Below the pieces are notes generated by a model that saw only the letters and a program-made list of their open reading frames with translations, did no database searches and had not been told where the DNA came from. A stretch of 64,000 nucleotides of DNA. Origin: Chthoniobacterales bacterium. GTDB lineage: Bacteria; Verrucomicrobiota; Verrucomicrobiia; Chthoniobacterales; UBA6821. Of the stretch, positions 4,147-63,700 are shown one piece after another. The stretch is from contig JBMOFC010000005.1 in assembly GCA_049314455.1 (NCBI GenBank), positions 5,095 to 69,094 of the forward strand, in the 5' to 3' direction. Position 1 is the stretch's first letter; the number at the start of each line of letters is the position of its first letter. The position numbers and the translations under genes are program-made.

Positions 4147-4267
4147 GTTTAGGGGTTTAGGATGCTGCAGAAGTAAAATTTGAATTCTAAAAATTTCACT
4201 TTGTATCGTAGCCAAATCATTTTTGAATCTAAAAAGCAACTTTCACTAACTTCCTAAACCTTTAAAC
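4147..4267. repeat. family F palindromic element (GTTTAGG-word arms)
   Basis: GTTTAGGGGTTTAGGATGCTGCAG...CAAATCATTTTTGAATCTAAAAAGCAACTTTCAC...CCTAAACCTTTAAAC. Related copies at 28808, 45560 and 49724. Confidence 0.7.
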
Positions 4268-4407: not shown

Positions 4408-4789
4408 GGGGGCGCACTGGTTTCGACCCGAAGCTGGTTATACGTTCTGCACGCCGAGGATGATCAGTTGGCCTCGTAAAAAATCTGGTCAACCAAATAA
4501 ATGCAAAAAATGCAAATATTGCAGCTAGCTTCGGCGAAACTGCAGCTCTCGCAGCTTAATTAATCTGCGACGTTCTCACACTGATGTCTATTAGGTGTGC
4601 GAGCGACACTAGTAGGCTCGTTTCACGGCGGAGAGACCGCGCTAGGAAACAAGATAATTCGTGGACTCTCGGAGAAGGGTAGCGCGGTGTATCGTAGTTC
4701 TTCTCCTAAATCAAAAATGCACATAAGCATGTAGACGGGCGTATTTGTTAGTCTCGGGCACAGGGGTTCAACTCCCCTCGCCTCCACCA
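4408..4789 (+). ncRNA. ssrA: tmRNA (SsrA)
   Basis: 5' GGGGGCG pairs with 3' CGCCTCC-A-CCA, with a G3:U wobble (alanine identity). T-arm GGGGTTCAACTCCCC. Internal tag frame 4503-4559 encodes AKNANIAASFGETAALAA followed by TAA. Confidence 0.9.
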
Positions 4790-4810
4790 GGAGCCTGTTT
4801 TGCAGGCTCC
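4790..4810 (+). terminator. hairpin directly after the tmRNA 3' end
   Basis: GGAGCCTG-TTTTG-CAGGCTCC, an 8-bp stem. No clear U-tract follows, so terminator function is uncertain. Confidence 0.35.
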
Positions 4811-4836
4811 GTTGGAGAGCCTACACAACAGGCTTA

Positions 4837-4990
4837 GTTGAAGTTCAAAGTTTAAGTTGAAGTGGAAAAACTAGTTCTTACATTCAACACTTAAACATCT
4901 TTTCAAAAATTACTAAAACACTGGACTGCTAAAAATTTTTTGATATCCGCGAAACGTTCAAAACTTCAACTTCAACTTCAACTTCAACTT
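4837..4990. repeat. palindromic element with GTTGAAG-word arms
   Basis: Left arm GTTGAAGTTCAAAGTTTAAGTTGAAGTGG. Right arm is (CTTCAA) x4.5 at 4964-4990, the reverse complement of the left-arm word. Confidence 0.6.
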
Positions 4991-5018
4991 ACCACCTAAC
5001 CTAATCGCGAAGCGATTT

Positions 5019-6011: not shown

Positions 6012-6649
6012 ACCAATCGTCTATTTTAGAGATTCTGCGTAACGTCAACGCCCTCGTTACTGACAGCCATATTGTTTACACCTCAGGCAAGCATGGTTCC
6101 ACTTATATCAACAAAGATGCCCTTTATCCGCACACTGCAGAAACTTCCGAGCTCTGCCGCCTCTTTGCAGAATATTTTGCTCGTGACGCTGTCGATGTTG
6201 TCATCGCTCCTGCGCTAGGCGGGATAATCCTCTCGCAATGGACAGCTCATCATCTTTCTCAACTCAACAAACGTGAAGTCCTCGGTCTCTACGCAGAAAA
6301 AATAGAAGGGACAAAAGACTTCGTTATTAAACGTGGCTACGACAAACTGCTTGCCCAAAAAAATGTTCTCGTTCTCGAAGATGTCCTGACCACGGGAGGC
6401 TCTGTTAAAAAAGTGATCGAGCTCGTACGAACCATGGGAGGTCATGTTGTGGGCCTCGGCGTTCTTTGCAATCGTGGTGGTATTACGAAAGAAGAAGTTG
6501 GTCCTGTTCCAAAACTCCAGGCCCTTGTTTCTATCAACCTAGAAGCCTGGGATCCAGAAGAGTGTCCACTCTGTGCTCAAGGCATTCCGATCAATACCAA
6601 CGTTGGGAAAGGAAGGGAGTTTTTAGAGCGACAGAAGAGAAACCAGTAA
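6008..6649 (+). CDS. pyrE: orotate phosphoribosyltransferase
   Basis: PRPP-binding loop VLVLEDVLTTGGS. Translationally coupled to pyrF. Confidence 0.85.
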   Translation: MNQSSILEILRNVNALVTDSHIVYTSGKHGSTYINKDALYPHTAETSELCRLFAEYFARDAVDVVIAPALGGIILSQWTAHHLSQLNKREVLGLYAEKIEGTKDFVIKRGYDKLLAQKNVLVLEDVLTTGGSVKKVIELVRTMGGHVVGLGVLCNRGGITKEEVGPVPKLQALVSINLEAWDPEECPLCAQGIPINTNVGKGREFLERQKRNQ

Positions 6650-6651
6650 AG

Positions 6652-6790
6652 GCTAATGAGTAATGGATGATGGGTAAAATTTTTAAATCCTTCTTCTTAA
6701 AAACCTAACCCCTTCAATCATCATCGCTCTTTCTTAACGTTGTTTCAGCTTTCTACTCATTACCCATTACTCGTTACCCATTACTTCATC
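6652..6790. repeat. palindromic element with GTAATGG/GTAATGAG-word arms
   Basis: Left arm GCTAATGAGTAATGGATGATGGGTAA. Right arm CTACTCATTACCCATTACTCGTTACCCATTACTTCATC. The same word recurs at 30215-30245. Confidence 0.6.
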
Positions 6791-13164: not shown

Positions 13165-14286
13165 ATGCTTCTCTCCCCTACTTCTAAAACTTCTTCTCCA
13201 AAAAATTTATCTGCGTCACACCTCCTCGCTAAAAAAGCCACAATAAGCTCCTATGCGAAGGCTGGTGTTAATGTAGCGCTCGGCAACCAGGTAAAATCAG
13301 GCATTGGCAAGATTGTTCGCCCGACGCATGGCCCTGAAGTCTTAGGCGGTATCGGCGGTTTTGGAGGGCTATTTCAACCCGATTTTAAAAAACGGGCTAT
13401 TAAAAACCCGGTCCTTGTCTCTAGTACCGATGGTGTGGGGACAAAGCTCAAAATCGCTTTTGCCACCAACTGCCATGACACCATTGGTGCGGATTTAGTG
13501 AATCATTGTATCAATGATATTTTGGTGACCGGGGCAGAGCCTCTTTTTTTCTTAGATTACGTAGCGGCAGAAACACTCGATCCCAAGGTGCTCAACGCCA
13601 TCCTCAAAGGTCTCGCACGTGCCTGCAAAACAGCTGGCTGTGCCCTAATCGGTGGTGAGACAGCACAGATGCCAGGCCTCTACCATCCAGGAGAATACGA
13701 TCTGGCTGGAACTATTGTCGGGGTGGTAGATCGTAAGCAACTGCTCGATGGAAGCCGTGTAAAAATCGGCGATCTCCTCATCGGCCTCCCCTCTCATGGG
13801 CTTCATACCAATGGCTATACGCTGGCCCGTCAGATTCTTTTTGAAACCATGAAACTAAAACTCTCGAGCAAGCCCAAGAATCTGACCACGACGCTCGAAG
13901 CCGAATTGCTTAAAATTCATCGTTCCTATCTTCCCGAGTTCAAAGCGATCAGGTCTCTCGGAGCCACAACGTTGCACGCTGCAGCACACATCACTGGTGG
14001 AGGACTTATCGACAATCTTCCTCGCATTCTTCCTAAGACCTGTGACGCCTGGATTGATACGGATACGTGGCAGATCCCCCCTATTTTCAAACTCCTCTGC
14101 CAGGGAGGTGGCGTAGATCCTCTTGAAATGTACCGGGTGTTCAACATGGGGATCGGCATGGTCTTTGTTGTTACTGCAAAAGAAGCCACGTCTATTGCCA
14201 AAAAACTCAAAGGAAAAATCATTGGAGAAATCGTTTCTGGTCGTGGAAATGTCCAGCTGGCTGCTTCGCAGCAGTTGAAGTTTTAA
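13165..14286 (+). CDS. purM: phosphoribosylformylglycinamidine cyclo-ligase (AIR synthetase)
   Basis: YAKAGVNV, GGFGGLF, DGVGTK and GGETAQMPG motifs. About 25-residue S/T/K-rich N-terminal extension. Confidence 0.9.
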   Translation: MLLSPTSKTSSPKNLSASHLLAKKATISSYAKAGVNVALGNQVKSGIGKIVRPTHGPEVLGGIGGFGGLFQPDFKKRAIKNPVLVSSTDGVGTKLKIAFATNCHDTIGADLVNHCINDILVTGAEPLFFLDYVAAETLDPKVLNAILKGLARACKTAGCALIGGETAQMPGLYHPGEYDLAGTIVGVVDRKQLLDGSRVKIGDLLIGLPSHGLHTNGYTLARQILFETMKLKLSSKPKNLTTTLEAELLKIHRSYLPEFKAIRSLGATTLHAAAHITGGGLIDNLPRILPKTCDAWIDTDTWQIPPIFKLLCQGGGVDPLEMYRVFNMGIGMVFVVTAKEATSIAKKLKGKIIGEIVSGRGNVQLAASQQLKF

Positions 14287-14296
14287 ATTGAAGTTA

Positions 14297-14497
14297 AACC
14301 GGATATTTCATACTCATTCTGCTGCGGCTTGTAAGATTCTTATGTATACTGCGTCAGTTTCGAATTGCTCATCGGGCAGTATGTACTCATACAGCCACGT
14401 CATTCCCGCGAAGGCGGAAACGTCGCAATCCATTGACTTCCTTGTCTACATAAGGCTGTGCGGCGCCTCGCGACAAATCAGCATGAAATATTCAGGT
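14297..14497. repeat. family C palindromic element
   Basis: AACCGGATATTTCATAC...GCATGAAATATTCAGGT termini and a central GTCATTCCCGCGAAGGCGG hairpin. Inverted copy at 47551-47832 and a fragment at 20962-20980. Confidence 0.75.
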
Positions 14498-15950: not shown

Positions 15951-17546
15951 ATGATCACACTCGCTTCTCTCCTCTGTAATTCCTCATGCTGGGCTGTTTC
16001 TATCGATGCGGCCGTTGTTCTTCTCTATTTTGCAATCATTATTGGGATCGGTCTCTATGCTGGCCGCAACAATAAGACATTGGAGGAGTTTGCTCTTGGT
16101 GGTCATTCTATCCCATGGTGGGCTGTGCTTGCTTCTATTGTAGCTGCCGAAACAAGTGCTGCCACGTTTCTTGGAACACCAGCAGAAGGGTACAAGACAC
16201 ATGCTTTTTTCTATGCCCAACTCGCCATTGGAACGGTGCTAGCCCGTATCATCATCGCCTACACCTTCATCGCTCCCTACTACCGCTACAAAGTAAAAAG
16301 TATCTATGAATTTTTGACTGTCCGTTTTGGAACCGCTACTAAAAACACAGCAAGCGCTATTTTCCTTTTCACACGCGTATTAGGAATTGGGGTCCGTCTT
16401 TACTTAGGCGGTCTTATCCTCGTAGTCCTCTGGCATTATTTCTATCCAGGAGCCCCCACAACCCTCTCCCACTATTTCTGGGGTATTTTAATCATTACCC
16501 TCATCACTACCGGATACACCATGGTTGGTGGTATTAAGGCTGTTGTTTGGACCGATCTCATTCAGGCTTCGCTCATGATTGGATCCGTTGCCCTAGCAGT
16601 ATGGCTTCTTCTCAGTCGTATTGGAGGCCTCAGTGCGGTTAAAGAAACATTTGGCAGCTGGGAAAACTTAAAATGGATTCAAAGTGATTGGGATACCACT
16701 ATTCCGTTTGGATCAGCTCTCTCCAAAATGCTTGCAGAACCCTATACGCTTTGGGCCGCTTTTATTGGATCAACTTTTTTGACCATGGCCACTCATGGTA
16801 CCGACCAGGATATGGTACAACGTCTCCTCACTGCTAAAAATGTTCAGAAGTCACGTCTCTCCCTCATTCTAAGCGGCTTTGCAGACATTCCACTAGCATT
16901 AGCCTTTTTAAGTGTGGGCATTCTTCTCTTTGTCTACTACTCCCACGTGGGAGCTCCTGCTATACCCGACAACGAAATTTTCGCCCATTTCATTGTCAAT
17001 AGTATGCCCGTAGGATTACGTGGATTGATTATTGCTGGCGTCTTAGCAACCATGATGGGATCGACCTCTGCTGCTCTCAATGCCCTCGCTACAAGTTTCA
17101 CGACTGATTTTTACATTCCCTACATCAACCCTAAGGCTGATGATCGTGCTTCCATTCGAGCAGCACGTGTGGCCACACTGGTTTTTGGAATCTTGATGAT
17201 TGGTGTTGGCACCATGGCTGCATATTCAGTGCTCCTCAATCCTCGACTCACTATTATTCCGATTGCCATCGGCATCTTGGGATACACCTATGGAGGACTT
17301 CTTGGTATTTTCTTGGTTGGCATGCTCACCACCACACGAGGCCATGATAAGACCAATGTCGTTGCCATGCTCCTCGGAATGACCAGTGTACTCTTTCTCG
17401 GCAAAGTCGAACTTCCTGGCATCATCAACTTCGGTCACTTCATGCCAACATGGTGGCCAGAAATTGCCTGGCCTTGGTATGTTTTCATCGGAAGCATGGT
17501 GACTATTCTCTGCGCACTGCCGTTTAGAACAGAAACCCGTTCATAG
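15951..17546 (+). CDS. sodium:solute symporter (SSS) family transporter
   Basis: About 13 TM helices and SSS-type motifs (GGHSIPWWAVLASIVAAETSAATFLG, GGIKAVVWTDLIQ). Confidence 0.8.
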   Translation: MITLASLLCNSSCWAVSIDAAVVLLYFAIIIGIGLYAGRNNKTLEEFALGGHSIPWWAVLASIVAAETSAATFLGTPAEGYKTHAFFYAQLAIGTVLARIIIAYTFIAPYYRYKVKSIYEFLTVRFGTATKNTASAIFLFTRVLGIGVRLYLGGLILVVLWHYFYPGAPTTLSHYFWGILIITLITTGYTMVGGIKAVVWTDLIQASLMIGSVALAVWLLLSRIGGLSAVKETFGSWENLKWIQSDWDTTIPFGSALSKMLAEPYTLWAAFIGSTFLTMATHGTDQDMVQRLLTAKNVQKSRLSLILSGFADIPLALAFLSVGILLFVYYSHVGAPAIPDNEIFAHFIVNSMPVGLRGLIIAGVLATMMGSTSAALNALATSFTTDFYIPYINPKADDRASIRAARVATLVFGILMIGVGTMAAYSVLLNPRLTIIPIAIGILGYTYGGLLGIFLVGMLTTTRGHDKTNVVAMLLGMTSVLFLGKVELPGIINFGHFMPTWWPEIAWPWYVFIGSMVTILCALPFRTETRS

Positions 17547-17554
17547 AACGAGTA
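17535..17554 (+). repeat. family H hairpin (ACCCGTTC-N4-GAACGrGT) containing the symporter stop codon
   Basis: ACC CGT TCA TAG encodes T-R-S-stop. The 3' arm is GAACGAGT (one mismatch). Confidence 0.7.
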
Positions 17555-17868
17555 ATGGCGTCAATTTAAGGAAATAAGTTGGCAAATTCTTACTTAAAAT
17601 ATACCAACGTCATTTTGTTTCCAAAAAGAATGAACCACAAAGGAAACATAGATGGCACAAAGAACACAAAAATAATTTTTTAATGAAAAAATTATCATAA
17701 ACTTTGAGTTCTAGATTTTTTCTATGGTCTGTATTTCTCGACTTTAAAATTTTTTATAAAAATTTTATCTTTGTGTTTTCTTTGTGCGCCGCTTTAGCGG
17801 CTTTGTGTTCTTTGTGGTGAATTTTTTCTCTCTTGGATACATGGTGACTTAAAATGAGTCGTCCATGT

Positions 17869-18203
17869 ATAGTGTGTTAGAGCGTTTTAAAAAATTCTGT
17901 AGCCGATGCATTGTCAGAACACGACCCGACGGGAGTCGGTTGGGTAGACTGCTGTTAGGCAGACAAGCAGTGTAGCCAGCTATACTTGAGGACGCGAGCA
18001 CCGGAGTGACACCACAAGGCGTGGCTATAGAGTTTTTTAAAATGCTCTAAATCGATAAAGGCACGCTATAAACTGCCTCTTTTTCCTTATAACTGTGTTC
18101 TCAGATCTTACGTTATCTTCAGATAGCGCCTCAATCTTCGGCCCTTGTCCTAAGAAAAAATTTTAGCGCTTCTAGTCCGTCCTTTTCAATTTAAAACACT
18201 ATA
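17869..18203. mobile_element. family D MITE (copy D1) interrupted by a family A MITE
   Basis: TA-TAGTGTGTTA...TTAAAACACTA-TA. Outside the insertion it is collinear with the uninterrupted copy at 51699-51866. Confidence 0.8.
17879..18050. mobile_element. family A MITE (copy A1) with TA target-site duplication
   Basis: TA-GAGCGTTTTAAAAAATTCTGTAGCC...GGCTATAGAGTTTTTTAAAATGCTC-TA, about 28-nt terminal inverted repeats. The empty site in D2 reads GTGTGTTAAATCG with a single TA. Confidence 0.85.
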
Positions 18204-18243
18204 AATAAAAATTGAATAAATCCTCACTTAAGTTGACGCCATT

Positions 18244-18264
18244 GCCCGTTCACAGGAACGGGTA
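18244..18264. repeat. family H hairpin
   Basis: GCCCGTTC-ACAG-GAACGGGTA. Confidence 0.65.
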
Positions 18265-18458
18265 AGAAGATAGAAGTTTGAAGATGGAAGATAGGATCAA
18301 AGCCCTCTTACAAGAATAATTCTCTTTTTTATCTATGTGAGAAGACTAAAACCCCGTCTTCTATCTACCATCACCTATCTTCCTATCCGTTACTTTAAAC
18401 GGATACCTCGCGTAAGCAAATCGAACTCTATCTTCCATCTTCAAACTTCTATCTTCTT
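18264..18458. repeat. palindromic element with GAAGATAG/GAAGATGG-word arms
   Basis: AAGAAGATAGAAGTTTGAAGATGGAAGATAGG ... CTATCTTCCATCTTCAAACTTCTATCTTCTT, about 30-nt near-perfect inverted arms. An H-type hairpin TATCCGTTACTTTAAACGGATA lies inside at 18384-18405. Confidence 0.75.
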
Positions 18459-18476
18459 ATTCGTTCTGAAGAATAC

Positions 18477-19022
18477 CTATTCCCAAAGGAACGATTGGGT
18501 CACCGCCACAATGTGATGATTTGCGATAAGAAGCGCTCGCCAGCAGGTCACGCGACCATTTTCGAGGTAGTCATCACCCACGACTTTAAAAATAGAACAG
18601 ATCGATCCATGCACGTTGGGATAGGTCATCTCACGTGCTAAAACCTCGTTACCAAGACCAGCTTGACGGTATTCAAAACGAATGGTGACCTCTTGAGCTG
18701 GTCCATGATTCCACCAATAAAAGTTGAAATAGTTACCACGGAGCTCATTTCTGTCTACGGACGTTGTCGCAGGCCACATGTAGGAGCGACGCTGAAAGTT
18801 GATGACTTCAGAATGGCTAGGTCTAAAGGTACTCGGATCGTTAAGAAATTGCGTCTCTTTTCGAAAAGCAAAATCACGGTTGATTTGCAACGGCAACACA
18901 TTTGCTTTTTCTAGCTTTACCATCGGAGGCTCAACGGTGGTGCAACCAAATGATAGCAGGCACAATCCTGCTATTAGGCTGGAGGCTAGAGGCTGGATTC
19001 TAGAGGTTAGAGAAAATTTCAT
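18477..19022 (-). CDS. hypothetical lipoprotein
   Basis: MKFSLTSRIQPLASSLIAGLCLLSFGC: signal peptide with an LSFGC lipobox. No domain recognised. An alternative upstream start lies at 19070. Confidence 0.55.
   Translation of the reverse strand: MKFSLTSRIQPLASSLIAGLCLLSFGCTTVEPPMVKLEKANVLPLQINRDFAFRKETQFLNDPSTFRPSHSEVINFQRRSYMWPATTSVDRNELRGNYFNFYWWNHGPAQEVTIRFEYRQAGLGNEVLAREMTYPNVHGSICSIFKVVGDDYLENGRVTCWRALLIANHHIVAVTQSFLWE
18977..19011. repeat. five degenerate GGCTGGA heptamers inside the lipoprotein signal-peptide coding region
   Basis: GGCTGGA GGCTAGA GGCTGGA TTCTAGA GGTTAGA on the + strand, inverted relative to the tract at 19141-19200. Confidence 0.7.
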
Positions 19023-19140
19023 GCTATTGTTTATTTTAGAGGTAGTGATGACTTTTTTATTTCGCCTCAATCATATGAAAAATCGACATCTTCTTTTTAA
19101 GAATTTACTGGATTTTTTCTAAAATAGAACGCTTTCAAAT

Positions 19141-19200
19141 TCCAGCCTCCAGCCTCCAGCCTCCAGCCTCCAGCCTCCAGCCTCCAGCCTCCAGCCTCCA
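19141..19200. repeat. perfect heptanucleotide tandem repeat (TCCAGCC) x8.6
   Basis: Read directly. 60 nt with no interruption, lying between the guaB3-like stop (19218) and the lipoprotein start (19022/19070). Confidence 0.95.
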
Positions 19201-19217
19201 AACAGCGCGAAGCACTG

Positions 19218-20396
19218 TTAGCGCGTTCCCATCCCGACGTTTTGAACCGTTTGGAAAAGTTTTCCTTCCGTTTTAATTGAGGGAGCAATAATGATTTCTG
19301 TCTCTTGAAATTCTTTAATGGTACTGGCCCCGACATTTCCCATGCAGGTTGTAATAGCTCCAACAAGATTTTGACTCCCATCATCCACAACTGCTGGACC
19401 AAAAAGAATTTGCTCCAGAGAGCCCGTTGTTCCTACATGAATACGTGTTCCGCGAGGGAGATTGGCGTGAGGAGTAGCCATTCCCCAATGATATCCTTTG
19501 CCTGGTGCTTCGAGCGCTTTTGCAAAAGCGCTTCCGACCATGACAGCATCAGAACCACAGGCCAATGCCTTGCAGACATCACCACCTTTACTCATACCAC
19601 CGTCAGTGATAATGGGAACATAGCGACTTGTCTTTTTGAAATAAGCATCGCGTGCTGCAGCACAATCAACCGTAGCAGTAACTTGAGGAACACCTAGTCC
19701 CAGAACCCCACGCGACGTACAAGCAGCTCCAGGACCAACACCAATGAGCACCCCACTCACACCACACTCCATAAGTTCTAAGGTGACGTCGTATCCAACG
19801 GCATTTCCGACAATGATCGGGATTGGCATGGATGCGCAAAAATGAGCTAGGTTGAGTGTCGGATATTTTGTGGAAATATGACGTACTGTGGAAACAGTAC
19901 TTTGCACGATAAAAAGATCGGCACCTGCTTCTGCTGCAATCGGCCCTACATGTTCTGCGCGTTGTGGAATAGAGCTGACCGCAACAAGACCGCCTGCTGC
20001 TTTAATATCGGCAATACGCTTTGTAACAAGATCATCTCGTACCGGTTCTTGATACATTTTTTGCAGTAATGTAGTCACATGATCTTTATCAGCTGTGAGT
20101 ACTTCCGCGAAGACTTCTTCTGGATTTTCATATCGCGTTTGAACACCATCGAGATTCAGAACAGCCAGGCCGCCTAATTTGCCCATGGCAATAGCAAAAC
20201 GAACATCGACCACGCCATCCATCGCACTTGCCATAATGGGAATGGAGAGTGTGAGATTCTTTCCATCTTTACCAGGAATAGAAAAAGTCGTATCGACTTC
20301 TTCTGGATTAATCGTGACACTTCCAGGAACGAGCGCTATTTCATCAAATCCGTAGGTTACACGAGCCTTACGGTTTCTTCCGATCCACATACCCAT
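19218..20396 (-). CDS. IMP dehydrogenase family protein, GuaB3 type (no CBS pair)
   Basis: TIM-barrel IMPDH/GMPR motifs (IMASAMDGV, GVGPGAACTSRGV, GGMSKGGDVCKALACGSDAVMVG). 392 aa with no CBS insertion. Confidence 0.8.
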   Translation of the reverse strand: MGMWIGRNRKARVTYGFDEIALVPGSVTINPEEVDTTFSIPGKDGKNLTLSIPIMASAMDGVVDVRFAIAMGKLGGLAVLNLDGVQTRYENPEEVFAEVLTADKDHVTTLLQKMYQEPVRDDLVTKRIADIKAAGGLVAVSSIPQRAEHVGPIAAEAGADLFIVQSTVSTVRHISTKYPTLNLAHFCASMPIPIIVGNAVGYDVTLELMECGVSGVLIGVGPGAACTSRGVLGLGVPQVTATVDCAAARDAYFKKTSRYVPIITDGGMSKGGDVCKALACGSDAVMVGSAFAKALEAPGKGYHWGMATPHANLPRGTRIHVGTTGSLEQILFGPAVVDDGSQNLVGAITTCMGNVGASTIKEFQETEIIIAPSIKTEGKLFQTVQNVGMGTR

Positions 20397-20653: not shown

Positions 20654-21237
20654 CAGAAAGTTGAAGTTGAAAGTTAAAATTGAAGCAGAAAAAGAGCGAT
20701 GCAGTGCCAGAAATGAGAATACAGCTGGCTGAGAGGTCCCTGGGTAGACTATAGTCTTTTAAAAAGAGAAGGGCGCGATAAGACGATGAAATTTTTCTTG
20801 ATAACAAGGCCGAAGAGCGAGCGCTATCTTAAGATAACGTGAGTGATGAGAACGCTGTTATCAAGAAAAAGAGCAAGTTCAGATCGTGCCCTTATGGATT
20901 TAAAAGACTATACATTGAGGCAGCCAAAATTGTGAGCAGGGTTTCGCCAAGCGAATCAACTCAGTATGAAATATCCGGGTTACGTAAGCAACTTCGTAAA
21001 CAATACTCTCCTTTGCTTCAACTCCAACTATTCGCTTCAACTCCTGCGCAGTATGAAATGACGCCATCCTGCGCCTCAGCAGTAGCATCGACTTAAACAA
21101 GCTAAAAGCGTGTTTGAAAAAGAAATAGAATCGATGAAGTGGCAGGAGCGTCGGCGCGCAGCGAAGGAGTGTACTTAAGGTACTCGATGGAGCGAGCACC
21201 GACGCAATGCGCGATTTTAGACTTTTCCAAATACGCT
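20654..21237. repeat. repeat mosaic (fragments of G-word, D, C and A families)
   Basis: GTTGAAGTTGAAAGTTAAAATTGAAGCAG (20655-), a D-like GCGCTATCTTAAGATAACGTGAG, the C terminus CAGTATGAAATATCCGGGT (20962-20980), and an A-related half-copy at 21141-21240 ending CGCTCTA. Confidence 0.6.
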
Positions 21238-24651: not shown

Positions 24652-24989
24652 AGAGATCGCTTTGCGGCAGTCGACTCAGCTCGCTATGGTTGAAGCTGTT
24701 AGTTTAAGTTGAAATACTGAACTTGAAGTTGACTCTTCTAATTGTATGGCACTTTCTAAGAGCCTGTATTCAGCTTGGTCCCTCAGCAGTTTGATCCTCA
24801 GATGATTTTCGAATGATTACGTAATAGTCCGATCGCTTTGCGATAGCTGAAGTTGTTAACGTACTGAACTTGAGAATTATTTCTCTACCTCAGCCTGAAG
24901 CTTTCACCTGTTGAAAGTAGTCGCCGTTACTTAAAAAATAGATATTCATTTTAAAAACTGATTCATTTTGGATCAAAAGCTATATAACG

Positions 24990-28807: not shown

Positions 28808-28970
28808 GTTGTAACTACTCAACAGTGGTGTGTTCTTAAAAAGAAAATTGAAATTTGCAAACGATTGTTTTTGTTTAGGAGTTTAGGAGTTTAGGAGTTT
28901 AGAAAATGAGTGAAAGCTGCTTTGCATTCGTTCAGGTAAGCGGAACGTACCCGTTCACTGAAGGGGTACT
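28808..28970. repeat. family F element (half copy) plus H hairpin
   Basis: ...TTGCAAACGATTGTTTTTGTTTAGGAGTTTAGGAGTTTAGGAGTTTAGAAAATGAGTGAAAGCTGC..., ending in GTACCCGTTCACTGAAGGGGTAC. The reverse complement of its left part recurs at 45680-45743. Confidence 0.7.
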
Positions 28971-29913: not shown

Positions 29914-29980
29914 AGGAAAAAGAAAAATCAGTAAAGGGTGAAGAATAAAGGGTAAAGAGTATTTTTATGATCGAAATAAA

Positions 29981-30145: not shown

Positions 30146-30268
30146 ACCTCGAAATTTGTATCTTTGCAAAAATCGTATTTTAAAAACATAAACCTAAAAT
30201 ATGGTGTGCCATTCTTTACTCACTACCCATTACCCGTTACACTTTACGGCATTGTTTTACAATGTCAC

Positions 30269-30806: not shown

Positions 30807-30950
30807 AGAAGTAATTCACAGGGATGAAAGGGATGAAAATAAAATTTGATGAAATAGATTGTCCTTCTTGTATTGGTGACACTTGACCCTTTACTCTTCA
30901 CTCTTTAATTTTCTCCATCCCTTCCATCTCTTTTATCCCCGTGAATTTCT
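30807..30950. repeat. palindromic element with GGGATGAAA-word arms overlapping the bioB start codon
   Basis: AGAAGTAATTCACAGGGATGAAAGGGATGAAAATAAAA ... TTTTCTCCATCCCTTCCATCTCTTTTATCCCCGTGAATTTCT. The GTG at 30941 is the bioB start. Confidence 0.6.
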
Positions 30951-31879: not shown

Positions 31880-31924
31880 CCATTTTCTAAAAAATGATTG
31901 TCCATTTTTTAGTAGTTGAAGTGA

Positions 31925-32188
31925 AAAGTTGAAGTTGAAGCAGAGATTTCAGAACGCCATTGAGACTTTTCTAGCCACAGTACCCGTTCAGCGGTACGGA
32001 CAACAGAACAGCTCGATCCTCGTGCAAGGGCCCCAGAGGGCTCTCAGTATCCGTTTAGCAGAACGGATTAGGCTATAGCCTTACCCGTCTCTTGAACGGG
32101 TACTAGCCACAAAAAAAGGTAGATCTTCGGCACTCGTTTTCTGAATAGACGTTTTCTTGCTGCTTCAACGTCAACTTTTCACTTCAAC
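31925..32188. repeat. family G element (GTTGAAG-word arms) with internal H hairpins
   Basis: GTTGAAGTGAAAAGTTGAAGTTGAAGCAGAG ... CTTGCTGCTTCAACGTCAACTTTTCACTTCAAC. Internal hairpins TATCCGTTTAGCAGAACGGATA (32048-32069) and TTACCCGTCTCTTGAACGGGTA (32081-32102). Confidence 0.75.
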
Positions 32189-32219
32189 TGGATTCGTTCC
32201 TGTGCACGGATACCTTCAA

Positions 32220-45559: not shown

Positions 45560-45743
45560 GTTTAGGAATTTAGGATACAGCAGTAGTAAAAATTTGAATT
45601 TTAAAACATTCATTTGTGGCGCAACCAAATCATTTTTGAATCTAAAAAGCAACTTTCACTCATTTTTTAAACTTCTAAACAAAAACAATCATTTGCAGAT
45701 TTCAATTTTCTTTTTAAGAACACACCCCTGCTGAGTAGTTACG
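45560..45743. repeat. family F element inside the metal-transporter operon
   Basis: GTTTAGGAATTTAGGATACAGCAG...AAATCATTTTTGAATCTAAAAAGCAACTTTCACTCATTTTTTAAACTTCTAAAC, plus a flank shared with 28808-28868. Confidence 0.75.
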
Positions 45744-45761: not shown

Positions 45762-46553
45762 TCATCCATGTGAGCAAGTCGTTTCATCAATATTATTTTC
45801 TGCATTAACAATAAAAAGTCGTCCTTCTGCCCGGAGAACATGGATGTTCATTCCATAAAGAGCACTGAGTGATTCATTGGAAATAATTTCTTCAACACTT
45901 CCCAAGGCCACCTTGCCTTGCGCCAAATACATGACACGCGTCATTGCCCCTAGCAGCGGGTTCACATCATGAGCAATGAAAAGAATCGTGAGGCCTGTCT
46001 CTTCACGAATGTGGAGAATACGCTGCACCAAGAGGACCTGATTTTTGGGGTCGAGACTGGCTAGCGGTTCATCGAGAATCAGCAGCCTGGGTTGATCAAT
46101 GAGTGCTTGTGCAAGCATCACTCGTTTTTTTTCTCCTCCTGAAAGCTGGCAAAAGGGAGCATCTGCATACTCCCTTGCTCCGGCTAATTCTAAGGAACGC
46201 TCCACCTGACGGGCGGCTTGAGAAGAGGGCCATGGAATCCCCCATTGTTCACCATGATGCACAGCGGCCACAAGGGCTCGCGCGGTGAGCGAGGTAGTCT
46301 CCAAAAAACTCTGCGATTGGGGCAAATAACCAATGCAGTGATTTGCTTTTCCAGGCGGCTCCCCAAAAAGACGGATCGATCCGCAGTGAAGTGGGCAAAG
46401 CCCCAGAATCGCGCGCATAAGTGTGGACTTGCCAACACCATTGGGCCCAAAAATACCGATAAATTCTCCCTCGGCAATCTCCGCAGAAAAATCACGAATA
46501 ACATCTCGCTCACCAAAGCGTATTCCAACATTCTGAAAAGAAAAGAGGGACAT
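45762..46553 (-). CDS. metal ABC transporter ATP-binding protein (ZnuC-like)
   Basis: Walker A GPNGVGKST, signature LSGGEKKR, Walker B LLILDEP. Confidence 0.85.
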   Translation of the reverse strand: MSLFSFQNVGIRFGERDVIRDFSAEIAEGEFIGIFGPNGVGKSTLMRAILGLCPLHCGSIRLFGEPPGKANHCIGYLPQSQSFLETTSLTARALVAAVHHGEQWGIPWPSSQAARQVERSLELAGAREYADAPFCQLSGGEKKRVMLAQALIDQPRLLILDEPLASLDPKNQVLLVQRILHIREETGLTILFIAHDVNPLLGAMTRVMYLAQGKVALGSVEEIISNESLSALYGMNIHVLRAEGRLFIVNAENNIDETTCSHG

Positions 46554-47888: not shown

Positions 47889-49415
47889 CTAATGCCTAAA
47901 ATGCCGCACTCCCGTAAAAACCATCGCAAGCCCACGTTCATTGGCAGCAGCAATCACTTCAGGATCACGCACAGAACCACCTGGTTGGATAGCGGCTGTG
48001 GCACCTGCTTCTGCAGCGGCAATCAGACCATCGGAAAAAGGAAAGAAAGCATCGCTGCAGACAACACTTCCCTGGAGTGAAAGACCTGCCTCTGCAGCCT
48101 TCCAAACAGCAATACGAGAAGCATCGACACGTGACATTTGACCAGCCCCGATTCCTAGTGTGCGATCTCGGCCCACGTAGACAATCGCATTACTCTTGAC
48201 ATGCTTGACAACCTTCCATCCAAATTCCATCGCCTCGAGCTCTTCTCGTGTGGGCGGTCGTTCCGTGACGACACGTTGCTCCATCGTTCCAACCTTATTC
48301 CAAGGATCGATGTCGGCATCTTGCAACAAGATTCCACCAATCACGGAGCGAAGATCACGGTCTGTTGGGGGAACCGTTTTCAAGAGTCGCATAAGACGAA
48401 GATTTTTTTTCTTCTGCAACAACGCACGTGCTTCTCCATGAAATTCTGGAGCGATAATGACTTCGCTAAAAATTTCTGAAATGGCATGCGCTAATGGTTC
48501 ATCGATCGGTCGATTCACAATGATAATGCCTCCAAAGGGAGCAGATCGATCTGTTGCAAAAGCTTTTTCCCAAGCCTCACAGAGATCGGAATCACTAGCC
48601 ACGCCGCAGGGATTGGTATGCTTGAGGATCGCAATAGTGGGCTTTTCAAATTCTGCGATGAGATGTGTAGCCGCAGTGATATCGAGAATGTTGTTAAAAG
48701 AAAGTTCTTTGCCATGAAGTTTTTCAAAATAGTCAAAGAAATGACCATAGAGCTCGGCTTCTTGATGGGGATTCTCACCGTAACGCAGGCGACACACTTG
48801 AGGGACCTTTAACGAAAAAGAATCGGAGGGAACCACCTCTCCATCGAGGTAAGAGCTAATCGCATAATCATAGGCAGCTGTTGTGGAAAAGGCTTTGGTG
48901 GCTAACCGAGCACGTAGTTCTGGAGTCGTGGAACCATGATTGTTAGCCATGGCTTCCAAAACACGTGGATAATCATCTGGATCGACCACCACGGTCACGG
49001 AAGCATGATTTTTAGAAGCGCTACGGATCATCGAAGGTCCACCAATATCAATTTGTTCGAGTGCTTGTTCGAGCGTAGTTCCTTTTTTCGCAATGGTTTC
49101 GACAAAGGGATAGAGATTCACACAGACCAAATCGATGGGCAGAATGCCATGTTCCTGCGCTTCGGCACAATGTGTTGGATGATCACGGCGATAGAGCAAA
49201 CCGCCATGAACTTTGGGATGAAGCGTCTTCACGCGTCCCTCCAGCATTTCAGGAAGTCCTGTAAAATCAGAAATTTCCGTCACAGGAATACCAGCGGCTT
49301 GTAATACTTTGGCTGTACCGCCAGTAGAAATCAATTCCACTTGCTGGGCGATAAGACCTCTGGCGAAATCAAGAAGACCTGTTTTATTGGAGACGGAAAG
49401 AAGAGCACGTTGCAT
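47889..49415 (-). CDS. purH: bifunctional AICAR formyltransferase / IMP cyclohydrolase
   Basis: [21 protein letters not shown] and C-terminal GGSVRD...[14 protein letters not shown] motifs. Confidence 0.92.
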
Positions 49416-49596
49416 AAGTTGGAAGAATCTCAATTTTTACAAAAAAATTTAAGTTGAGTTGAAGTGAAAAGTTAAAGTTGAAGCAAAGTTTTGAGCTGTT
49501 AGCGCTATTTATCGATGTTATCTGAGATTTTAAATAAGATACCATAAATAAAAATAATAGAATTCTTGTGACTATCAACGTAGCTAACACAGAGAA

Positions 49597-49723: not shown

Positions 49724-50084
49724 GGTTTAGGAGTGTAGGGGTTGAGAAGTTTAGAAAATGAGTGAAAGTTGCTTTGTATTCGTTCAGGTAAGCGGAACGC
49801 ACCCGTTCAGGGAACAGCTAATGCTGAAGACGAAAGGGCAGAGAGTCGAATACTCGATGAATAAATTGATCTGCGATTATCAGCATTAGATTCAAACGAT
49901 TGTTTCTTCCTTCTAAAGTGAACTTGCCTATAGCCTACAGCCTTATCCGTTCCTGTGAACGGATACGTTGCTTTTTAGATTCAAAAATGATTTGGTTTCG
50001 CCACAAATGAATTTTTTAAAATTCAAATTTTTACTACTGCTGTATCCTAAACCCCTAAACTCCTAAACTTCTAAACCTCTAACC
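49724..50084. repeat. family F element expanded by an internal family I/H insertion
   Basis: Arms GGTTTAGGAGTGTAGGGGTTGAGAAGTTTAG and CTAAACCCCTAAACTCCTAAACTTCTAAACCTCTAACC. The interior (about 49800-49965) is the inverted counterpart of 63526-63700. Confidence 0.7.
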
Positions 50085-51606: not shown

Positions 51607-51698
51607 TTTGGGTTGCTTTTGCATCCAAAATTATTATTGAAGTGACAAGTTGAAGTCAAAACAGCAAAAAAGATAATTTGTTGTCGACTGCCTTATTT

Positions 51699-51866
51699 TA
51701 TAGTGTGTTAAATCGATAAAGGCACGCTATAAGCTGGATCTTTTCCCTTATGAATACGTTCTCAGATCTTACGTTATCTTCAGATAGCGCCTCAATCTTC
51801 GGCCCCCTTGTCCTAAGAAAAAATTTCAGCGCTTCTAGTGCGCCCTTTTCAATTTAAAACACTATA
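51699..51866. mobile_element. family D MITE, uninterrupted copy (D2)
   Basis: TA-TAGTGTGTTAAATCGATAAAGGCACGCTATAAGC...CAATTTAAAACACTA-TA. Confidence 0.8.
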
Positions 51867-51927
51867 TCTGAAGCCCGCAGTCTGCAGCCGTATTCATTCA
51901 CAGGAATGGAATAGGAAGATGAAAAAG

Positions 51928-52070
51928 TAGATTTCTTTCGAAATTCTACTGCTGATACGAACAACAGTATTGCTCCGGTGCTCGCGCCCTCGAGTACCTC
52001 TTTGTATACTGTGAGTCTGCGCGCCGAAGCGCCTTGTTCTTCATCATCAGCGAGTTTCGAAAGAAATCTA
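51928..52070 (-). mobile_element. family B MITE, intergenic copy (B2)
   Basis: TA-GATTTCTTTCGAAATTC...GAGTTTCGAAAGAAATC-TA. Its reverse complement aligns along the whole pyrF insert. Confidence 0.8.
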
Positions 52071-52174
52071 GTGTCGTAAAAGAAACGCAAGGAGAGCCAA
52101 AAAGTGAATTTTCGGTACCAGTTACCGAACAGATACGTTTTTGCTGCTTCAACTTCAACTTGTCACTTCAACTG

Positions 52175-52196
52175 TACTCGTTCTTATGAACGGGTA
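52175..52196 (-). repeat. family H hairpin containing the permease stop codon
   Basis: Minus strand reads ACC CGT TCA TAA, which encodes T-R-S-stop. Stem TACCCGTTC/GAACGAGTA. Confidence 0.7.
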
Positions 52197-53584
52197 TAGT
52201 TCTTATAAGCATAAAATCCCAACACAGGTAGGATCATGGCAATCACTCCACCAGAGAAAATTGTGAAATAATGCAGGTTGCTTCCAACGTCTATATTACT
52301 CGGAGGAATAAATCCGACGATTAGCGTGATGACACAGCCGATCAGTCCTAAAGAACAAGTGATTCCTGTGCCGAATAGACCACCAGGAATTTTGAAAAGA
52401 TGTTTTGGTACCACCATTTTTGTTTTTAGTTTTACGGCTGCTAAGAACATAAAAACATACATCAAGATATAAAGCTGTGTACTCAAGTCCGTGAGCAACC
52501 AATAAGAACCATTCACACTTGGCATCAGTCCCCAGGCAGAACAAATCAGGCTAACAATGACGGCTTGCGCAATGAGGATTCGAGCTGGCACGCCGTGACG
52601 ATTTTTAGCGGTGAAGAACAAAGGAAGGTATCCGCTTTCAGCAGCTTGCAAAATTCCTTTGGCAGGAGAAATGATATAACCAACCATTCCTGATAAACAA
52701 CCAAAGAGAATCATGAGTACGACTGCTGGAATGAGAAACTTCATATGATAGGCATCAGAAAAAATAGTGAAAATTTGCATCACTCCGTCGACTAAATTGA
52801 TTTGATCTAGCGGTACCACAAGGGCAAAACTAAGTGCTCCAAGGATCATAGATGTTAAAATAATGACTACGGCAAAGAAAAGGGCTCTTGGAAAACTTTT
52901 TTCGGGAGTCTTGACTTCGTTGATATGTACGGTTGCGAGCTCTATTCCAATAAGAGAAGCCATGATGGCTGTGATGGCGGTTAGCGAAGAAAAACTTCCA
53001 GCTCCATAAAAACAAGGGAGAAGGTTGTGCAGATTAAAATGAATTTGAATCGGCTTTCCTAAAAATATCCAAACCGCAGCAAAGATAATGATTAGAAAAA
53101 TAGAAGTGAGGGTTCCTAAAACGGAAAAAATCGTCGCAAAGGAAGCAGAACGGTGAATTCCAAAGAGGTTGAGCATGGTCATTCCCCAAAACACGACGAT
53201 AATCACACTCACAAGATATGTTTTATTATTTGCTAGTTCTGGATTGAAAAAGTAGGTCGCTGTCGCTGCAATAAAGGAGAGAATGGTGGGAAACCAAACA
53301 AGCGTATTGATCCATTGAAGCCAAATGGCGATCAGGCCAACCTTGGGCCCAAAAGCTAAACAGGTCCAATGATAAATGCCTCCACTCCCTCTATATTCTG
53401 TGGAAGCAGAGGAGAGCTGTGCTGAAACTAAAGCGACTGGAATCAAAAAAATAACTGCTGAGAGAAAACAGTAGAAAACAAGTGTCGTGCCAAAAAGAGC
53501 TATTTGAGGAAGGTTTCTGACGTTATCAATAGCACTAATAATTAATAAGGTAAGCGTTAGCTGAGTGAGTTGTTTGGCTCTCAT
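52184..53584 (-). CDS. APC-superfamily amino acid permease (glutamate:GABA antiporter-like subfamily)
   Basis: 12 TM helices. The N-terminal AKQLTQLTLTLLIISAIDNVRNLP resembles the GadC-type start. Confidence 0.75.
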   Translation of the reverse strand: MRAKQLTQLTLTLLIISAIDNVRNLPQIALFGTTLVFYCFLSAVIFLIPVALVSAQLSSASTEYRGSGGIYHWTCLAFGPKVGLIAIWLQWINTLVWFPTILSFIAATATYFFNPELANNKTYLVSVIIVVFWGMTMLNLFGIHRSASFATIFSVLGTLTSIFLIIIFAAVWIFLGKPIQIHFNLHNLLPCFYGAGSFSSLTAITAIMASLIGIELATVHINEVKTPEKSFPRALFFAVVIILTSMILGALSFALVVPLDQINLVDGVMQIFTIFSDAYHMKFLIPAVVLMILFGCLSGMVGYIISPAKGILQAAESGYLPLFFTAKNRHGVPARILIAQAVIVSLICSAWGLMPSVNGSYWLLTDLSTQLYILMYVFMFLAAVKLKTKMVVPKHLFKIPGGLFGTGITCSLGLIGCVITLIVGFIPPSNIDVGSNLHYFTIFSGGVIAMILPVLGFYAYKNYTRS

Positions 53585-56704: not shown

Positions 56705-57835
56705 ATGTGGAATCAAGTGACTCGATTTTTTAACAAGCATTTCTATCATCTCCTTGCATGGTTTTTTCCTCCAACACCACAACCTCTGCCAAAAAATCCT
56801 CAACTGATTTTAGTTCTTAGCACCACAGGAATTGGCGATAGTCTCTTTGATTCTGCTGCCATCAAAAGTTTAAAGCAGGGACATCCTGGTGCGAAGCTTG
56901 TCGTAGCAACTCATCACCGCCGCGGATCGGTAGCACAGCATAATCCTTTTGTGGATGAAGTGCTCCCCTTGAGTAAATCTCCTCTTTCTCAGTTGCGTCT
57001 TTTGAAATTCTTTCAAAATAAAAAACCTGATCTGGTGGTAGCTTTGCGTGTCAATGAAGAAGCCGTTCCACTCGGATATCTTCTGAATCGTCATGCCTTT
57101 GTGGGTGCTGTGGAACGCTGTCAAGGTTTCGACTTTCTGCTCTCACATCCCGTGGTGACTCACGAGGAAAAGCATATTGTGGAGGAAACCTTGAAAGTCG
57201 CAGCGGTTGCCGGAGGAGCCATGGTCGATCGTGGCATGGTTTATCACGTATGTGATGATGAACTCAAACTCTTGCACGAGCATCACCAGAATTTGAAGAA
57301 GCCGTTTATTGTTTTTCAAACAGGAGGAGGAAAAACACTTGCTTGGCGCAACTGGCCGGTAGAATCGTATATCCAAGCCATCACCTGGTTGAAGGAGCAT
57401 TATCCTCATCAGGTCATTTTGACGGGAGGTCATGACAATGAAGAAACGGGACGGGCGATTGAAATAGCTTGCCCTTGGGTAGTCAACCTTGTTCAAAAAA
57501 CAACACTCGAAGAAACAGCCGCGCTCTTGCAAGAGGCCTCCATGCTGGTGAGCACCGATACTGGCGTGATGCACCTTGGTTTTGCGATCGGCTCCCCTAC
57601 CCTCGCCCTCCTGCATTACCGCAGCCCTGCGAGTATGTACGGCCCCCTCGATTATTCACCAGGACATCAGATCATTGAGTTAGTAAAACCAGAAAAAGCA
57701 AACATCCTCTCCCAAAAAAGCACTCAAGAAAATGGCATCCCATACAATGAAATGAGTCAGATTCCGTTTGAAAAAGTCACCGTAGCCATGGAGCGCATCT
57801 TAGGAGCACCCGTTTCAGAACGGGCAAGGCTGTAG
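56705..57835 (+). CDS. glycosyltransferase family 9 (heptosyltransferase-like)
   Basis: ILVLSTTGIGDSLFDSAAIKSLK N-terminal motif and C-terminal LVSTDTGVMHLGFAIGSPTLALL. Confidence 0.75.
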   Translation: MWNQVTRFFNKHFYHLLAWFFPPTPQPLPKNPQLILVLSTTGIGDSLFDSAAIKSLKQGHPGAKLVVATHHRRGSVAQHNPFVDEVLPLSKSPLSQLRLLKFFQNKKPDLVVALRVNEEAVPLGYLLNRHAFVGAVERCQGFDFLLSHPVVTHEEKHIVEETLKVAAVAGGAMVDRGMVYHVCDDELKLLHEHHQNLKKPFIVFQTGGGKTLAWRNWPVESYIQAITWLKEHYPHQVILTGGHDNEETGRAIEIACPWVVNLVQKTTLEETAALLQEASMLVSTDTGVMHLGFAIGSPTLALLHYRSPASMYGPLDYSPGHQIIELVKPEKANILSQKSTQENGIPYNEMSQIPFEKVTVAMERILGAPVSERARL

Positions 57836-57858
57836 ACTATAGGCTGTAGGTCAGAAGG

Positions 57859-63527: not shown

Positions 63528-63700
63528 GGCTGTAGACGATAGGCTGTAGGCTGTAGGAAAATTCACTTCAGAAGAAAGAAACAATTTTTGGTAGTCCAAT
63601 ATTTATAATCGTAGATCAATTTATTCATCGAGCGTTCCATTCAATACTCTGATCTTTATAGTCTTTAGCCTACAGCCTTACCCGTTCTCTGGACGGGTAC
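63526..63700. repeat. family I element (GGCTGTAG-word arms) ending in an H hairpin
   Basis: AAGGCTGTAGACGATAGGCTGTAGGCTGTAGG ... AGCCTACAGCCTTACCCGTTCTCTGGACGGGTAC. The interior matches the inverted sequence at about 49800-49965. Confidence 0.7.

Follow-up and report, generated by a model that had tools for sequence, protein, structure and literature searches.

Among the spacers of the 64-kb stretch of Chthoniobacterales DNA analysed here (contig JBMOFC010000005.1; the whole stretch is called the window) lie palindromic elements whose arms are tandem arrays of short purine-rich words, and one of these, at 18264-18458, had been flagged in a preliminary description. The window has a G+C content of about 44%, and its proteins match those of uncultured Chthoniobacterales (Verrucomicrobiota), the closest GuaB3 relatives being freshwater metagenome-assembled genomes (MAGs) with 90-94% amino-acid identity. 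A cyanobacterial source, to which the likeness of the arrays to cyanobacterial heptamer repeats had first pointed, was rejected on these protein matches. The window was compared with 80 related loci around guaB3 (1.26 Mb; designated L001 and so on) and with Logan contigs from three metagenome runs that hold it; order-wide counts refer to the resulting 81 sequences, 1.32 Mb in all. Arrays were collected with Tandem Repeats Finder (TRF; period 6-9, at least 2.5 copies), with 30 dinucleotide shuffles of the window as the null. No sequence of this organism was found in two metatranscriptomes of the same study.

The flagged element begins, at its outer left end, with a mini-hairpin (18243-18263; TGCCCGTTC ACAG GAACGGG), the 3' half of which is the start of the left arm. 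This purine-rich arm (18256-18294) is made up of GAACGGGTA and then about four words (AGAAGATAG AAGTTTG AAGATGG AAGATAG), and the pyrimidine-rich right arm (18428-18466), which terminates in TTATTCGTTC, is its complement. Both arms are 39 nt long and were resolved by TRF into about 4.3 units with a period of 7, and they are 95% complementary to each other. When folded as RNA, the element reached z = -11.7 on the plus strand and -8.4 on the minus strand, relative to dinucleotide shuffles. The interior, or loop (18295-18427), contains a second, degenerate array of pyrimidine words (18359-18387; 18361-18387 in the TRF row), followed by another mini-hairpin (18384-18405). On its right side the element adjoins the stop codon (18477-18479) of a minus-strand lipoprotein gene through a further mini-hairpin (18460-18476).

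Parts of the flagged element are present elsewhere in many copies. In metagenome X1, depth summed over the contigs of all organisms in the sample, and therefore to be read as "many copies" rather than as a strict copy number, rises to 344 over the left arm and its mini-hairpin (18248-18302), against 6-8 in unique DNA. The loop array and mini-hairpin pair (18358-18412) form a second high-copy module, with a peak of 231 at 18380-18390; depth in the interior at 18314-18357 is merely 17-38, and the right arm has unique depth only. The contigs of other loci terminate within the left mini-hairpin, at 18243, 18245 and 18248. A metagenome scan with the 22-nt left arm gave two chance matches only, both in unrelated AT-rich DNA.

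The palindromes with tandem-word arms reported in the preliminary description are real, and they are not a product of base composition. The window contains 15 arrays, whereas the shuffles averaged 0.93 and never exceeded 3 (roughly a 16-fold excess). Across the 81 sequences, 49 arrays are matched by a reverse-complement partner with a score of 14 or more, as against 14 arrays in a complement-only control that is itself inflated because some of the words are mirror-symmetric. Such words occur at 4836-4867, 6652-6680 and 18264-18294 (AGTTGA, GTAATG and GAAGATAGAAG), where the pyrimidine arm is both the reverse complement and almost the plain complement of the purine arm. Eleven paired elements were found in the window (4147-4267, 4834-5004, 6641-6785, 18256-18466, 18976-19200, 30813-30945, 31914-32189, 45560-45680, 49725-50084, 51637-52171 and 63512-63693), along with about ten solo arrays. 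The earlier claim of a shared architecture with differing words was also borne out, since several word families occur in the window genome and more are found across the order, and all of the places listed earlier do carry the words given for them. A suggested consensus, G-Y-T-G-N-A-G, describes GTTGAAG, GCTGTAG and GCTGGAG, and only these three word families.

The 124 intergenic arrays of the order-wide set have a median length of 32 nt; period 7 is the commonest (57 arrays) and the most frequent copy number is four, a mode that may partly reflect the detection threshold. Array density in spacers and gene edges is 2.5 times that deep inside genes, and period 7 prevails outside genes, with periods 9 and 6 prevailing inside them.

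The paired elements have a strict polarity. Among those in intergenic DNA, 29 are purine-first, 14 are compositionally mixed and none is pyrimidine-first. When the best inverted repeat of each spacer was chosen independently of the arrays, 19 periodic stems proved to be purine-first and none pyrimidine-first, the two pyrimidine-first stems being aperiodic. Because an inverted repeat reads alike on both strands, this excess is a real asymmetry of the class. The order at gene junctions is stop codon, purine arm, loop, pyrimidine arm, and then a start codon or a convergent stop. Arrays in the purine orientation are found within -30 to +10 nt of an upstream stop in 21 of 135 cases, as against 8 of 135 for those in the pyrimidine orientation, which lie mostly 30-300 nt downstream of the stop. 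Of 40 classified pairs, 29 are in tandem spacers, and most pairs span a co-directional spacer from stop to start.

Several origins of this polarity were considered. A general purine-to-pyrimidine trend across spacers was dropped as an explanation, because spacers without arrays show no such trend (0.478 versus 0.471) and those with arrays do (0.571 versus 0.337), so that the polarity belongs to the elements themselves. It could arise from common family descent, from strand-specific propagation, or from selection against words resembling starts or Shine-Dalgarno purine runs ahead of start codons. Backup stop codons in all three frames were likewise dropped as a selected feature, being present in 47 of 85 purine arrays where composition predicts 59%. 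The possibility that the words are accumulated 8-bp target duplications of a mini-hairpin element predicted that words to the left and right of the hairpin would share one orientation, which was never seen.

The clearest case of dispersal is provided by the GTTTAGG family, which is represented by four copies with unrelated flanks. Two of them (4147-4267 and 45560-45680; 84% identity) are complete 121-nt elements in which either end has two words, and hence not the single arms for which they had been taken. The third (49725-50084), 96% identical over 95 nt, has 4-5 words per arm. Its two arms had been listed as a pair, and the GTTTAGG assignment holds, with the correction that this is a third family copy split by a 191-nt insert (49776-49966). 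The insert has the termini GTATTCGTTCA and TGAACGGATAC and is flanked by an 8-bp target duplication, GTTGCTTT, as judged from the uninterrupted copy at 45560-45680. It also holds GGCTGTAG-type words beside its own terminal mini-hairpin. The fourth copy is partial (28873-28957, plus strand; 92% identity to 49725-49809), with 3.8 perfect GTTTAGGA units and the start of the same nested insert, so that the composite must have been copied after nesting.

A 62-nt sequence (containing GGTGTGTTCTTAAAAAGAAAATTGAAAT.TGCAAA.GATTGTTTTT) occurs at both 28811-28872 and 45681-45742. Each time it lies between the stop codon of an unrelated gene (yidC; the gene at 45762-46553) and the adjoining GTTTAGG words, with its relative orientation unchanged, and it may be a further module of the mosaic.

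GTTGAAG arms occur at eight places in the window, and over one of them (31912-31950) the summed depth in metagenome X1 is 550-670, again against 6-8 in unique DNA. The borders of the high-depth arms are sharp, many contigs running on from them into differing flanks, and one contig links two GTTGAAG arms across only 28 nt. The arms are the conserved, many-copy unit and the interiors are interchangeable; contig depth suggests tens of copies. Where loops are large, they owe their size to the insertion of other repeats.

About half of the arms in the window genome carry a small outer hairpin, which consists of GAACGRRYA and an inverted copy 3-4 nt away. Within the window, GAACGRRYA preceded by its inverted copy was matched 21 times, as against 8.3 expected, and six of these matches are directly followed by purine words. 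Hairpins of this family lie, for example, at 17535-17554, 18243-18263, 32081-32103, 49944-49966, 52175-52197, 57809-57826 and 63679-63700. They have the look of a pair of 10-nt element ends opposed over a gap of 3-4 nt (GTAYCCGTTC-N3-4-GAACGGRTAC), and they resemble the junction of inverted repeats in a circular intermediate of transposition, or a minimal miniature inverted-repeat transposable element (MITE).

The number of words varies between copies of one family, from two to 4-5 per arm for GTTTAGG, and perfect arrays of 8.6 and 14 units face degenerate partners, which together argue for replication slippage. In the window a perfect (TCCAGCC)x8.6 run stands opposite a partner of 5 units. 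Similar runs were seen in L019 (10138-10236), where (TGACTCC)x14 lies opposite about three complementary units, and in L061 (19170-19231), with (CCTTCTG)x8.7; the long perfect runs of these two loci show one-sided expansion. The earlier suggestion had been of slippage that keeps the arms complementary. Slippage stands, on the varying word numbers and the perfect runs, and upkeep of complementarity is not supported: the arms are unequal (5 versus 8.6 in the window, 3 versus 14 in L019), their mismatches carry no compensatory bias, and an arm is nearer to its own partner than to the arms of other copies in only two of five families, which is weak evidence.

These data also bear on the idea that the arrays are non-mobile simple sequences that arise by heptamer slippage in place beside a stop codon, the inverted partner being made and corrected by quasi-palindrome template switching. 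Heptamers are the commonest unit of long bacterial simple sequence repeats and slippage has been proposed for them (Mrazek 2007, as cited in PMC4679880). Long perfect arrays do exist, in several genomes the stop codon of guaB3 falls in register with the first word and forms part of it, and the Xanthomonas arrays of Rehm et al. showed no connection with mobile elements (PMC4692102). An origin in place is nonetheless quite improbable, since identical arms of 30-55 nt occur with non-repeat terminal and interior sequence and sharp borders at many unrelated loci, since a composite copy with a nested insertion has itself been duplicated, and since the arms are often unequal, which speaks against coordinated correction.

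Further evidence comes from the relatives. In dozens of distant Chthoniobacterales (G+C 54-64%) a compact version of the element lies directly after the guaB3 stop codon, where about four words, a loop of 4-40 nt and about four complementary words end at the start codon of fabF. The words at this junction are lineage-specific: many genomes carry (A)GTGAYR and others TTAGCGAT, the clade of the window has GGCTGRA and AGGTTAC, and the Udaeobacter clade has AACGCTTY, which is present as a single arm. In a tree of GuaB3 these types follow the clades in part, yet close sisters differ: L014 has GTGAY, L063 AACGATT, L044 AGCGATT, and L020 no element. At the guaB3 stop, a small hairpin of another kind lies 5' of the purine words in the window and in L003, L004 and L005, and L006 has no element either here or after the lipoprotein gene.

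Turnover is also seen at the exbB-exbD junction, which is 8 nt long and without an element in the window, L001 and L002 alike. This junction contains an element of the GGGATGGAA type in L003 and one of a third type in L004; in L005 only the right arm of a GGGATGGAA-type element is kept, and a different, complete element replaces the rest. Conversely, the window shares the GGGATGRAA, GTAATGG and AGTAAAG arm families with L003 or L005, at sites that are not orthologous. This sharing at non-orthologous sites and the turnover of spacers argue for dispersed families with fast gain, loss and replacement. No exact empty site was found among the relatives at such divergence.

The guaB3-fabF junction is the natural place to weigh a second alternative, namely that the elements are selected intercistronic RNA structures (for instance ribonuclease III processing sites, stabilizing 3' hairpins or attenuating terminators) that punctuate operons, the tandem words being merely how such stems evolve. 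The pairs fill co-directional spacers from stop to start in 29 of 40 cases. The predicted stems are regular, with 6 bp and a 1x1 mismatch per heptamer, and strong (z of -3 to -12 across elements), the guaB3-fabF hairpin is present in dozens of distant genomes, and in several GC-rich ones a U-run follows it right before the ATG. Set against this is the composition of the guaB3-fabF stems, in which 444 Watson-Crick pairs are accompanied by 98 mismatches, comprising 20 G.U, 31 A.C and 47 of transversion type. These mismatches include no wobble excess on the sense strand, nor do they show the compensatory change between paired arms that had been put forward for testing. The antisense strand folds equally well or better, and close relatives have no element, or unrelated words, at the same junction. 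Rfam, in which a family match had been sought, gave the transfer-messenger RNA (tmRNA) as the sole match at gathering score, and over 18000-19400 it returned noise only (E of at least 0.17). Intrinsic terminators, which have a GC-rich stem, a loop of 3-8 nt and a U-tract, were rejected as an identity for the elements, for none lies at any element between 14000 and 33000, where the total number of sites equals the shuffle count. The lack of a G.U excess and of an Rfam match argues that the word elements are not RNAs under structural selection, and operon punctuation is in our estimate distinctly unlikely as their origin.

At L014 11177-11272, L046 4730-4818, L037 11177-11265 and the corresponding junctions of other GC-rich relatives, the hairpin, the U-run and the fabF ATG follow one another directly (e.g. 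GGTCACTTTTTTTATG). These junctions are without a purine run resembling a Shine-Dalgarno sequence, and the spacers of GC-rich relatives are not in general enriched in purines before starts.

The account that we consider reasonably probable is that the word-arm elements are dispersed, modular repeats, MITE-like or foldback-like, that belong to several related families and have slippage-prone arms of tandem words. The unit of such an element is the arm, a module of three to five tandem purine-rich words of 7-8 nt, with the other arm as its reverse complement; in the window genome the words often follow a terminal hairpin made of GAACGGRTA and an inverted copy. Arrays would lengthen and shorten by replication slippage, and the modules would presumably be spread in trans by an enzyme encoded outside the window that recognizes the arm or the terminal hairpin. 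Once transcribed, the arms may pair as an imperfect stem, some 30 bp long, with 6 bp and one mismatch per word. This stem probably alters mRNA 3' ends and the expression of the next gene, presumably as a side effect and not as the reason for the existence of the elements.

Several observations weigh against mobility of this kind. No target duplication of 5 nt or more flanks the ten word-arm elements inspected, whose exact ends are uncertain, and the window contains no transposase or other candidate mobilizing gene. The words differ from family to family, so that a single enzyme would have to recognize something else, such as the terminal hairpin, which about half of the arms lack. Among the GC-rich relatives the guaB3-fabF hairpin appears to have been passed on vertically across long distances, loop motifs such as GCTAACTGTC being shared, and inheritance of this kind fits a maintained and possibly useful structure. 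Finally, nowhere in the 1.32 Mb of Chthoniobacterales DNA do complementary arrays bracket a mobilizing gene or a small gene. The last result also touches a further model, in which the elements derive from the arms of a small gene cassette and have no gene of their own (the cassette being of the PF05635 four-helix-bundle type found in 23S rRNA intervening sequences), with the cassette protein, or ribonuclease III acting on the stem, as the partner. On this model at least some copies would have the gene between the two arrays; none was found in the 1.32 Mb, nor was a PF05635 gene among the ten small open reading frames (ORFs) of the window that were scanned. We consider the cassette model very improbable.

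The remaining elements of the window, paired and solo, are as follows. On the minus strand, the GGCTGGA-type element (18976-19200) runs from the guaB3 stop codon through a mini-hairpin, (GGCTGGA)x8.6 and a loop to five degenerate complementary units. This degenerate pyrimidine arm (18976-19022) lies inside the 5' end of the called lipoprotein ORF. Its counterpart in L006 begins with a normal hydrophobic signal peptide and is next to a spacer of 35 nt instead, and the start or the signal peptide called in the window genome may need revision. The GTAATGG-type pair at 6641-6785 (fold z -6.6), whose arm family is also present in L005, begins at the TAA stop codon of the upstream gene (6647-6649), and the GGCTGTAG-type pair at 63512-63693, which has a mini-hairpin after its right arm, begins at the stop codon of glgB (63525-63527). 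The GGGATGRAA-type pair at 30813-30945 (fold z -3.6) has the same arms as an element at a non-orthologous site in L003 (8217-8384).

Three pairs are of the GTTGAAG type. The one at 4834-5004 lies directly 3' of the tmRNA gene (tag AKNANIAASFGETAALAA; 4408-5004 region), where the palindrome is placed 45 nt downstream and fills the gap to the next start at 5019. The second (31914-32189) has 30-nt arms that are 97% complementary and a 216-nt loop full of mini-hairpins, and the third (51637-52171) has 34-nt arms that are 91% complementary and another MITE in its loop (51709-51804, similar to 18048-18143). Solo arrays of this type, all given in plus-strand coordinates, lie at 14274-14300, where the array runs across the final codons of the upstream gene and its TAA stop (14284-14286), at 20656-20685, at 24689-24732, and at 49444-49490, the minus-strand pyrimidine form of which is just upstream of the start of the gene at 47889-49433. 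A solo GGCTGTAG array (57826-57850, plus strand) follows immediately after a mini-hairpin, and its first word gives the upstream gene its TAG stop codon (57833-57835). Also on the plus strand are a solo pyrimidine array of the GTAATGG family (30216-30247), a solo purine array of TAAAGGG/TGAAGAA words (29929-29958) whose family is also found in L003, and a solo pyrimidine array, CCCTTTACTCTTCACTCTTTA, of that same family (30882-30912). The last two had been described as partners; they are 930 nt apart and flank a flavin mononucleotide reductase gene, and they are better read as two half-elements.

Elements that supply stop codons by their own arrays, as at 14284-14286, 57833-57835 and 63525-63527, illustrate a practical consequence, which is that real genes receive stop codons, C-terminal residues and N-terminal codons from these repeats. 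Short-read assemblies are broken by them as well: Logan contigs of a metagenome like the source break at word arms and MITEs (6652-6672, 17500-18460 and 31940-32140). The elements probably fragment the MAGs of this lineage in the same way, and they produce spurious ORFs in Chthoniobacterales MAGs.

How do repeats of this design relate to those already described in other genomes? Integron attC sites have RYYYAAC ... GTTRRRY core sites, are pyrimidine-first and follow cassette ORFs. An attC identity was rejected, as the polarity of the word-arm elements is the opposite one and their flanking genes are housekeeping genes. Repetitive extragenic palindromic (REP) sequences, with the bacterial interspersed mosaic elements (BIMEs) and REP doublets forming hairpins (REPINs) built from them, offer a closer likeness, in that they are many-copy extragenic palindromes at gene junctions near stops, and inverted doublets of them form long hairpins. 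A REP unit is an imperfect palindrome of 20-40 nt with a GTAG or CGTC tag and a REP-associated tyrosine transposase (RAYT) as its partner (PMC3733652). The arms described here are direct tandem words without self-complementarity, on which ground a REP or BIME identity was rejected, and the small GAACGG hairpins are the more REP-like part.

Bacterial MITEs, such as Correia/nemis, RUP, Nezha and the IS630-type and IS1380-type MITEs of the same genome, share with the word-arm elements their small size, non-coding nature, dispersal, nesting and hairpin-forming transcripts. The elements are short, have terminal inverted repeats and exist as dispersed copies with unrelated flanks, all of which are features of MITEs, whereas no target-site duplication was found at the word-arm ends. 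They differ also in that no parent insertion sequence lies in the window, that the arms are internally tandem and variable in length, and that the many families share architecture and polarity rather than sequence.

The same design, with long inverted arms made up of tandem subrepeats (10-31 bp) in variable number and with central segments that are variable or absent, characterizes the foldback (FB) transposons of Drosophila and other eukaryotes. These are much larger, generate 9-bp target duplications and in some copies carry a known transposase, and the likeness is one of design only. A bolder proposal, which we regard as unlikely, is that purine-first tandem-word palindromes constitute a distinct self-propagating class that crosses phyla and is the prokaryotic counterpart of the foldback transposons. 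Its ends would be the word arrays, here with a mini-hairpin ahead of them, some enzyme or cassette protein would recognize them in a strand-specific manner and thereby fix the polarity, and the heptamer repeats of Xanthomonas, cyanobacteria and other phyla would be copies or relics of such elements rather than G-quadruplex or regulatory motifs.

Tandem heptamers as such have been noted since 1990, without a mechanism. The short tandemly repeated repetitive (STRR) sequences of cyanobacteria, reportedly described by Mazel in 1990, are tandem heptamer repeats, and one STRR word, TTGGTCA, resembles the CTGGTCA word of L014 and L037. Like the arrays described here, the STRRs and the TAACTGA repeats of other bacteria are intergenic tandem heptamers beside start codons, with stop-bearing words in one orientation only and with unknown function. 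They differ in being mostly single direct arrays, with one or a few words per genome, and terminal hairpins or shared interiors have not been described for them. Only one inverted set was reported among the 170 of the TAACTGA repeats, which occur in Beggiatoaceae, Cyanobacteria and Bacteroidetes (MacGregor 2015, PMC4679880), and the heptamers of Nostoc likewise include only a few inverted pairs (PMC4692102). Related heptamer repeats have been treated as long simple sequence repeats (LSSRs; PMC4679880) and by Pradhan (2022, bioRxiv).

The closest precedent comes from Xanthomonas campestris and X. axonopodis, where (GGGAATC)n/(GGGANTN)n heptamer arrays, mostly of four units, were described by Rehm et al. 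(2015, PLoS One, PMC4692102). Each genome contains 70-75 convergent inverted pairs, in which the complement follows the G-rich array. On the coding strand the G-rich sequence is found no more than 50 bp after stops, and on the non-coding strand no more than 50 bp before starts. The arrays lie mostly between co-oriented genes and rarely between divergent ones, and the number of units varies among related genomes; their function is unknown, G-quadruplex formation has been proposed, and they were associated with increased local stability (PMC4692102). The present elements agree with the Xanthomonas pairs in having about four heptamers, a convergent purine-first arrangement, positions close to stops and starts, and a location mainly between co-oriented genes, and the preliminary view that their design falls outside all described repeat classes must be given up. 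They differ in their terminal hairpins, shared interiors, dispersed modules and nested insertions, and in belonging to another phylum, the Verrucomicrobiota.

The most telling difference concerns the words themselves. Xanthomonas has one word family capable of forming G-quadruplexes, whereas here at least eight families are present, of which almost none has this capacity, and the words do not conform to GGGANTN. A last alternative is that the word arrays act as G-quadruplexes or other non-B DNA motifs, or that a host protein with a 7-nt register binds them as DNA or RNA, G-quadruplex formation being the leading idea for the best-studied case. The words of Xanthomonas and Nostoc do form G-quadruplexes in vitro, arrays of about four units are typical here as well (with the caveat of the detection threshold), and it is the arms, not the interiors, that form the conserved high-copy part, which is also the one hint of the protein-binding half sites suggested in the preliminary description. 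For the present elements, G-quadruplex formation was rejected, as four or more GGG runs occur in 2 of the 124 intergenic arrays and in none of the 20 in the window, and the presence of at least eight unrelated words in one genome argues against one sequence-specific protein; an explanation of either kind has the slightest of prospects. The word-arm elements are thus a multi-family variant of a known and unexplained phenomenon, the bacterial heptamer repeats, and not a new kind of element. Since the same syntax is built here from words that cannot form G-quadruplexes, an explanation of heptamer repeats must work without them, and it probably involves the propagation of arms together with a polarity rule tied to gene ends. 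The main value of the comparison with Xanthomonas lies in this independence of the shared syntax from G-quadruplexes.

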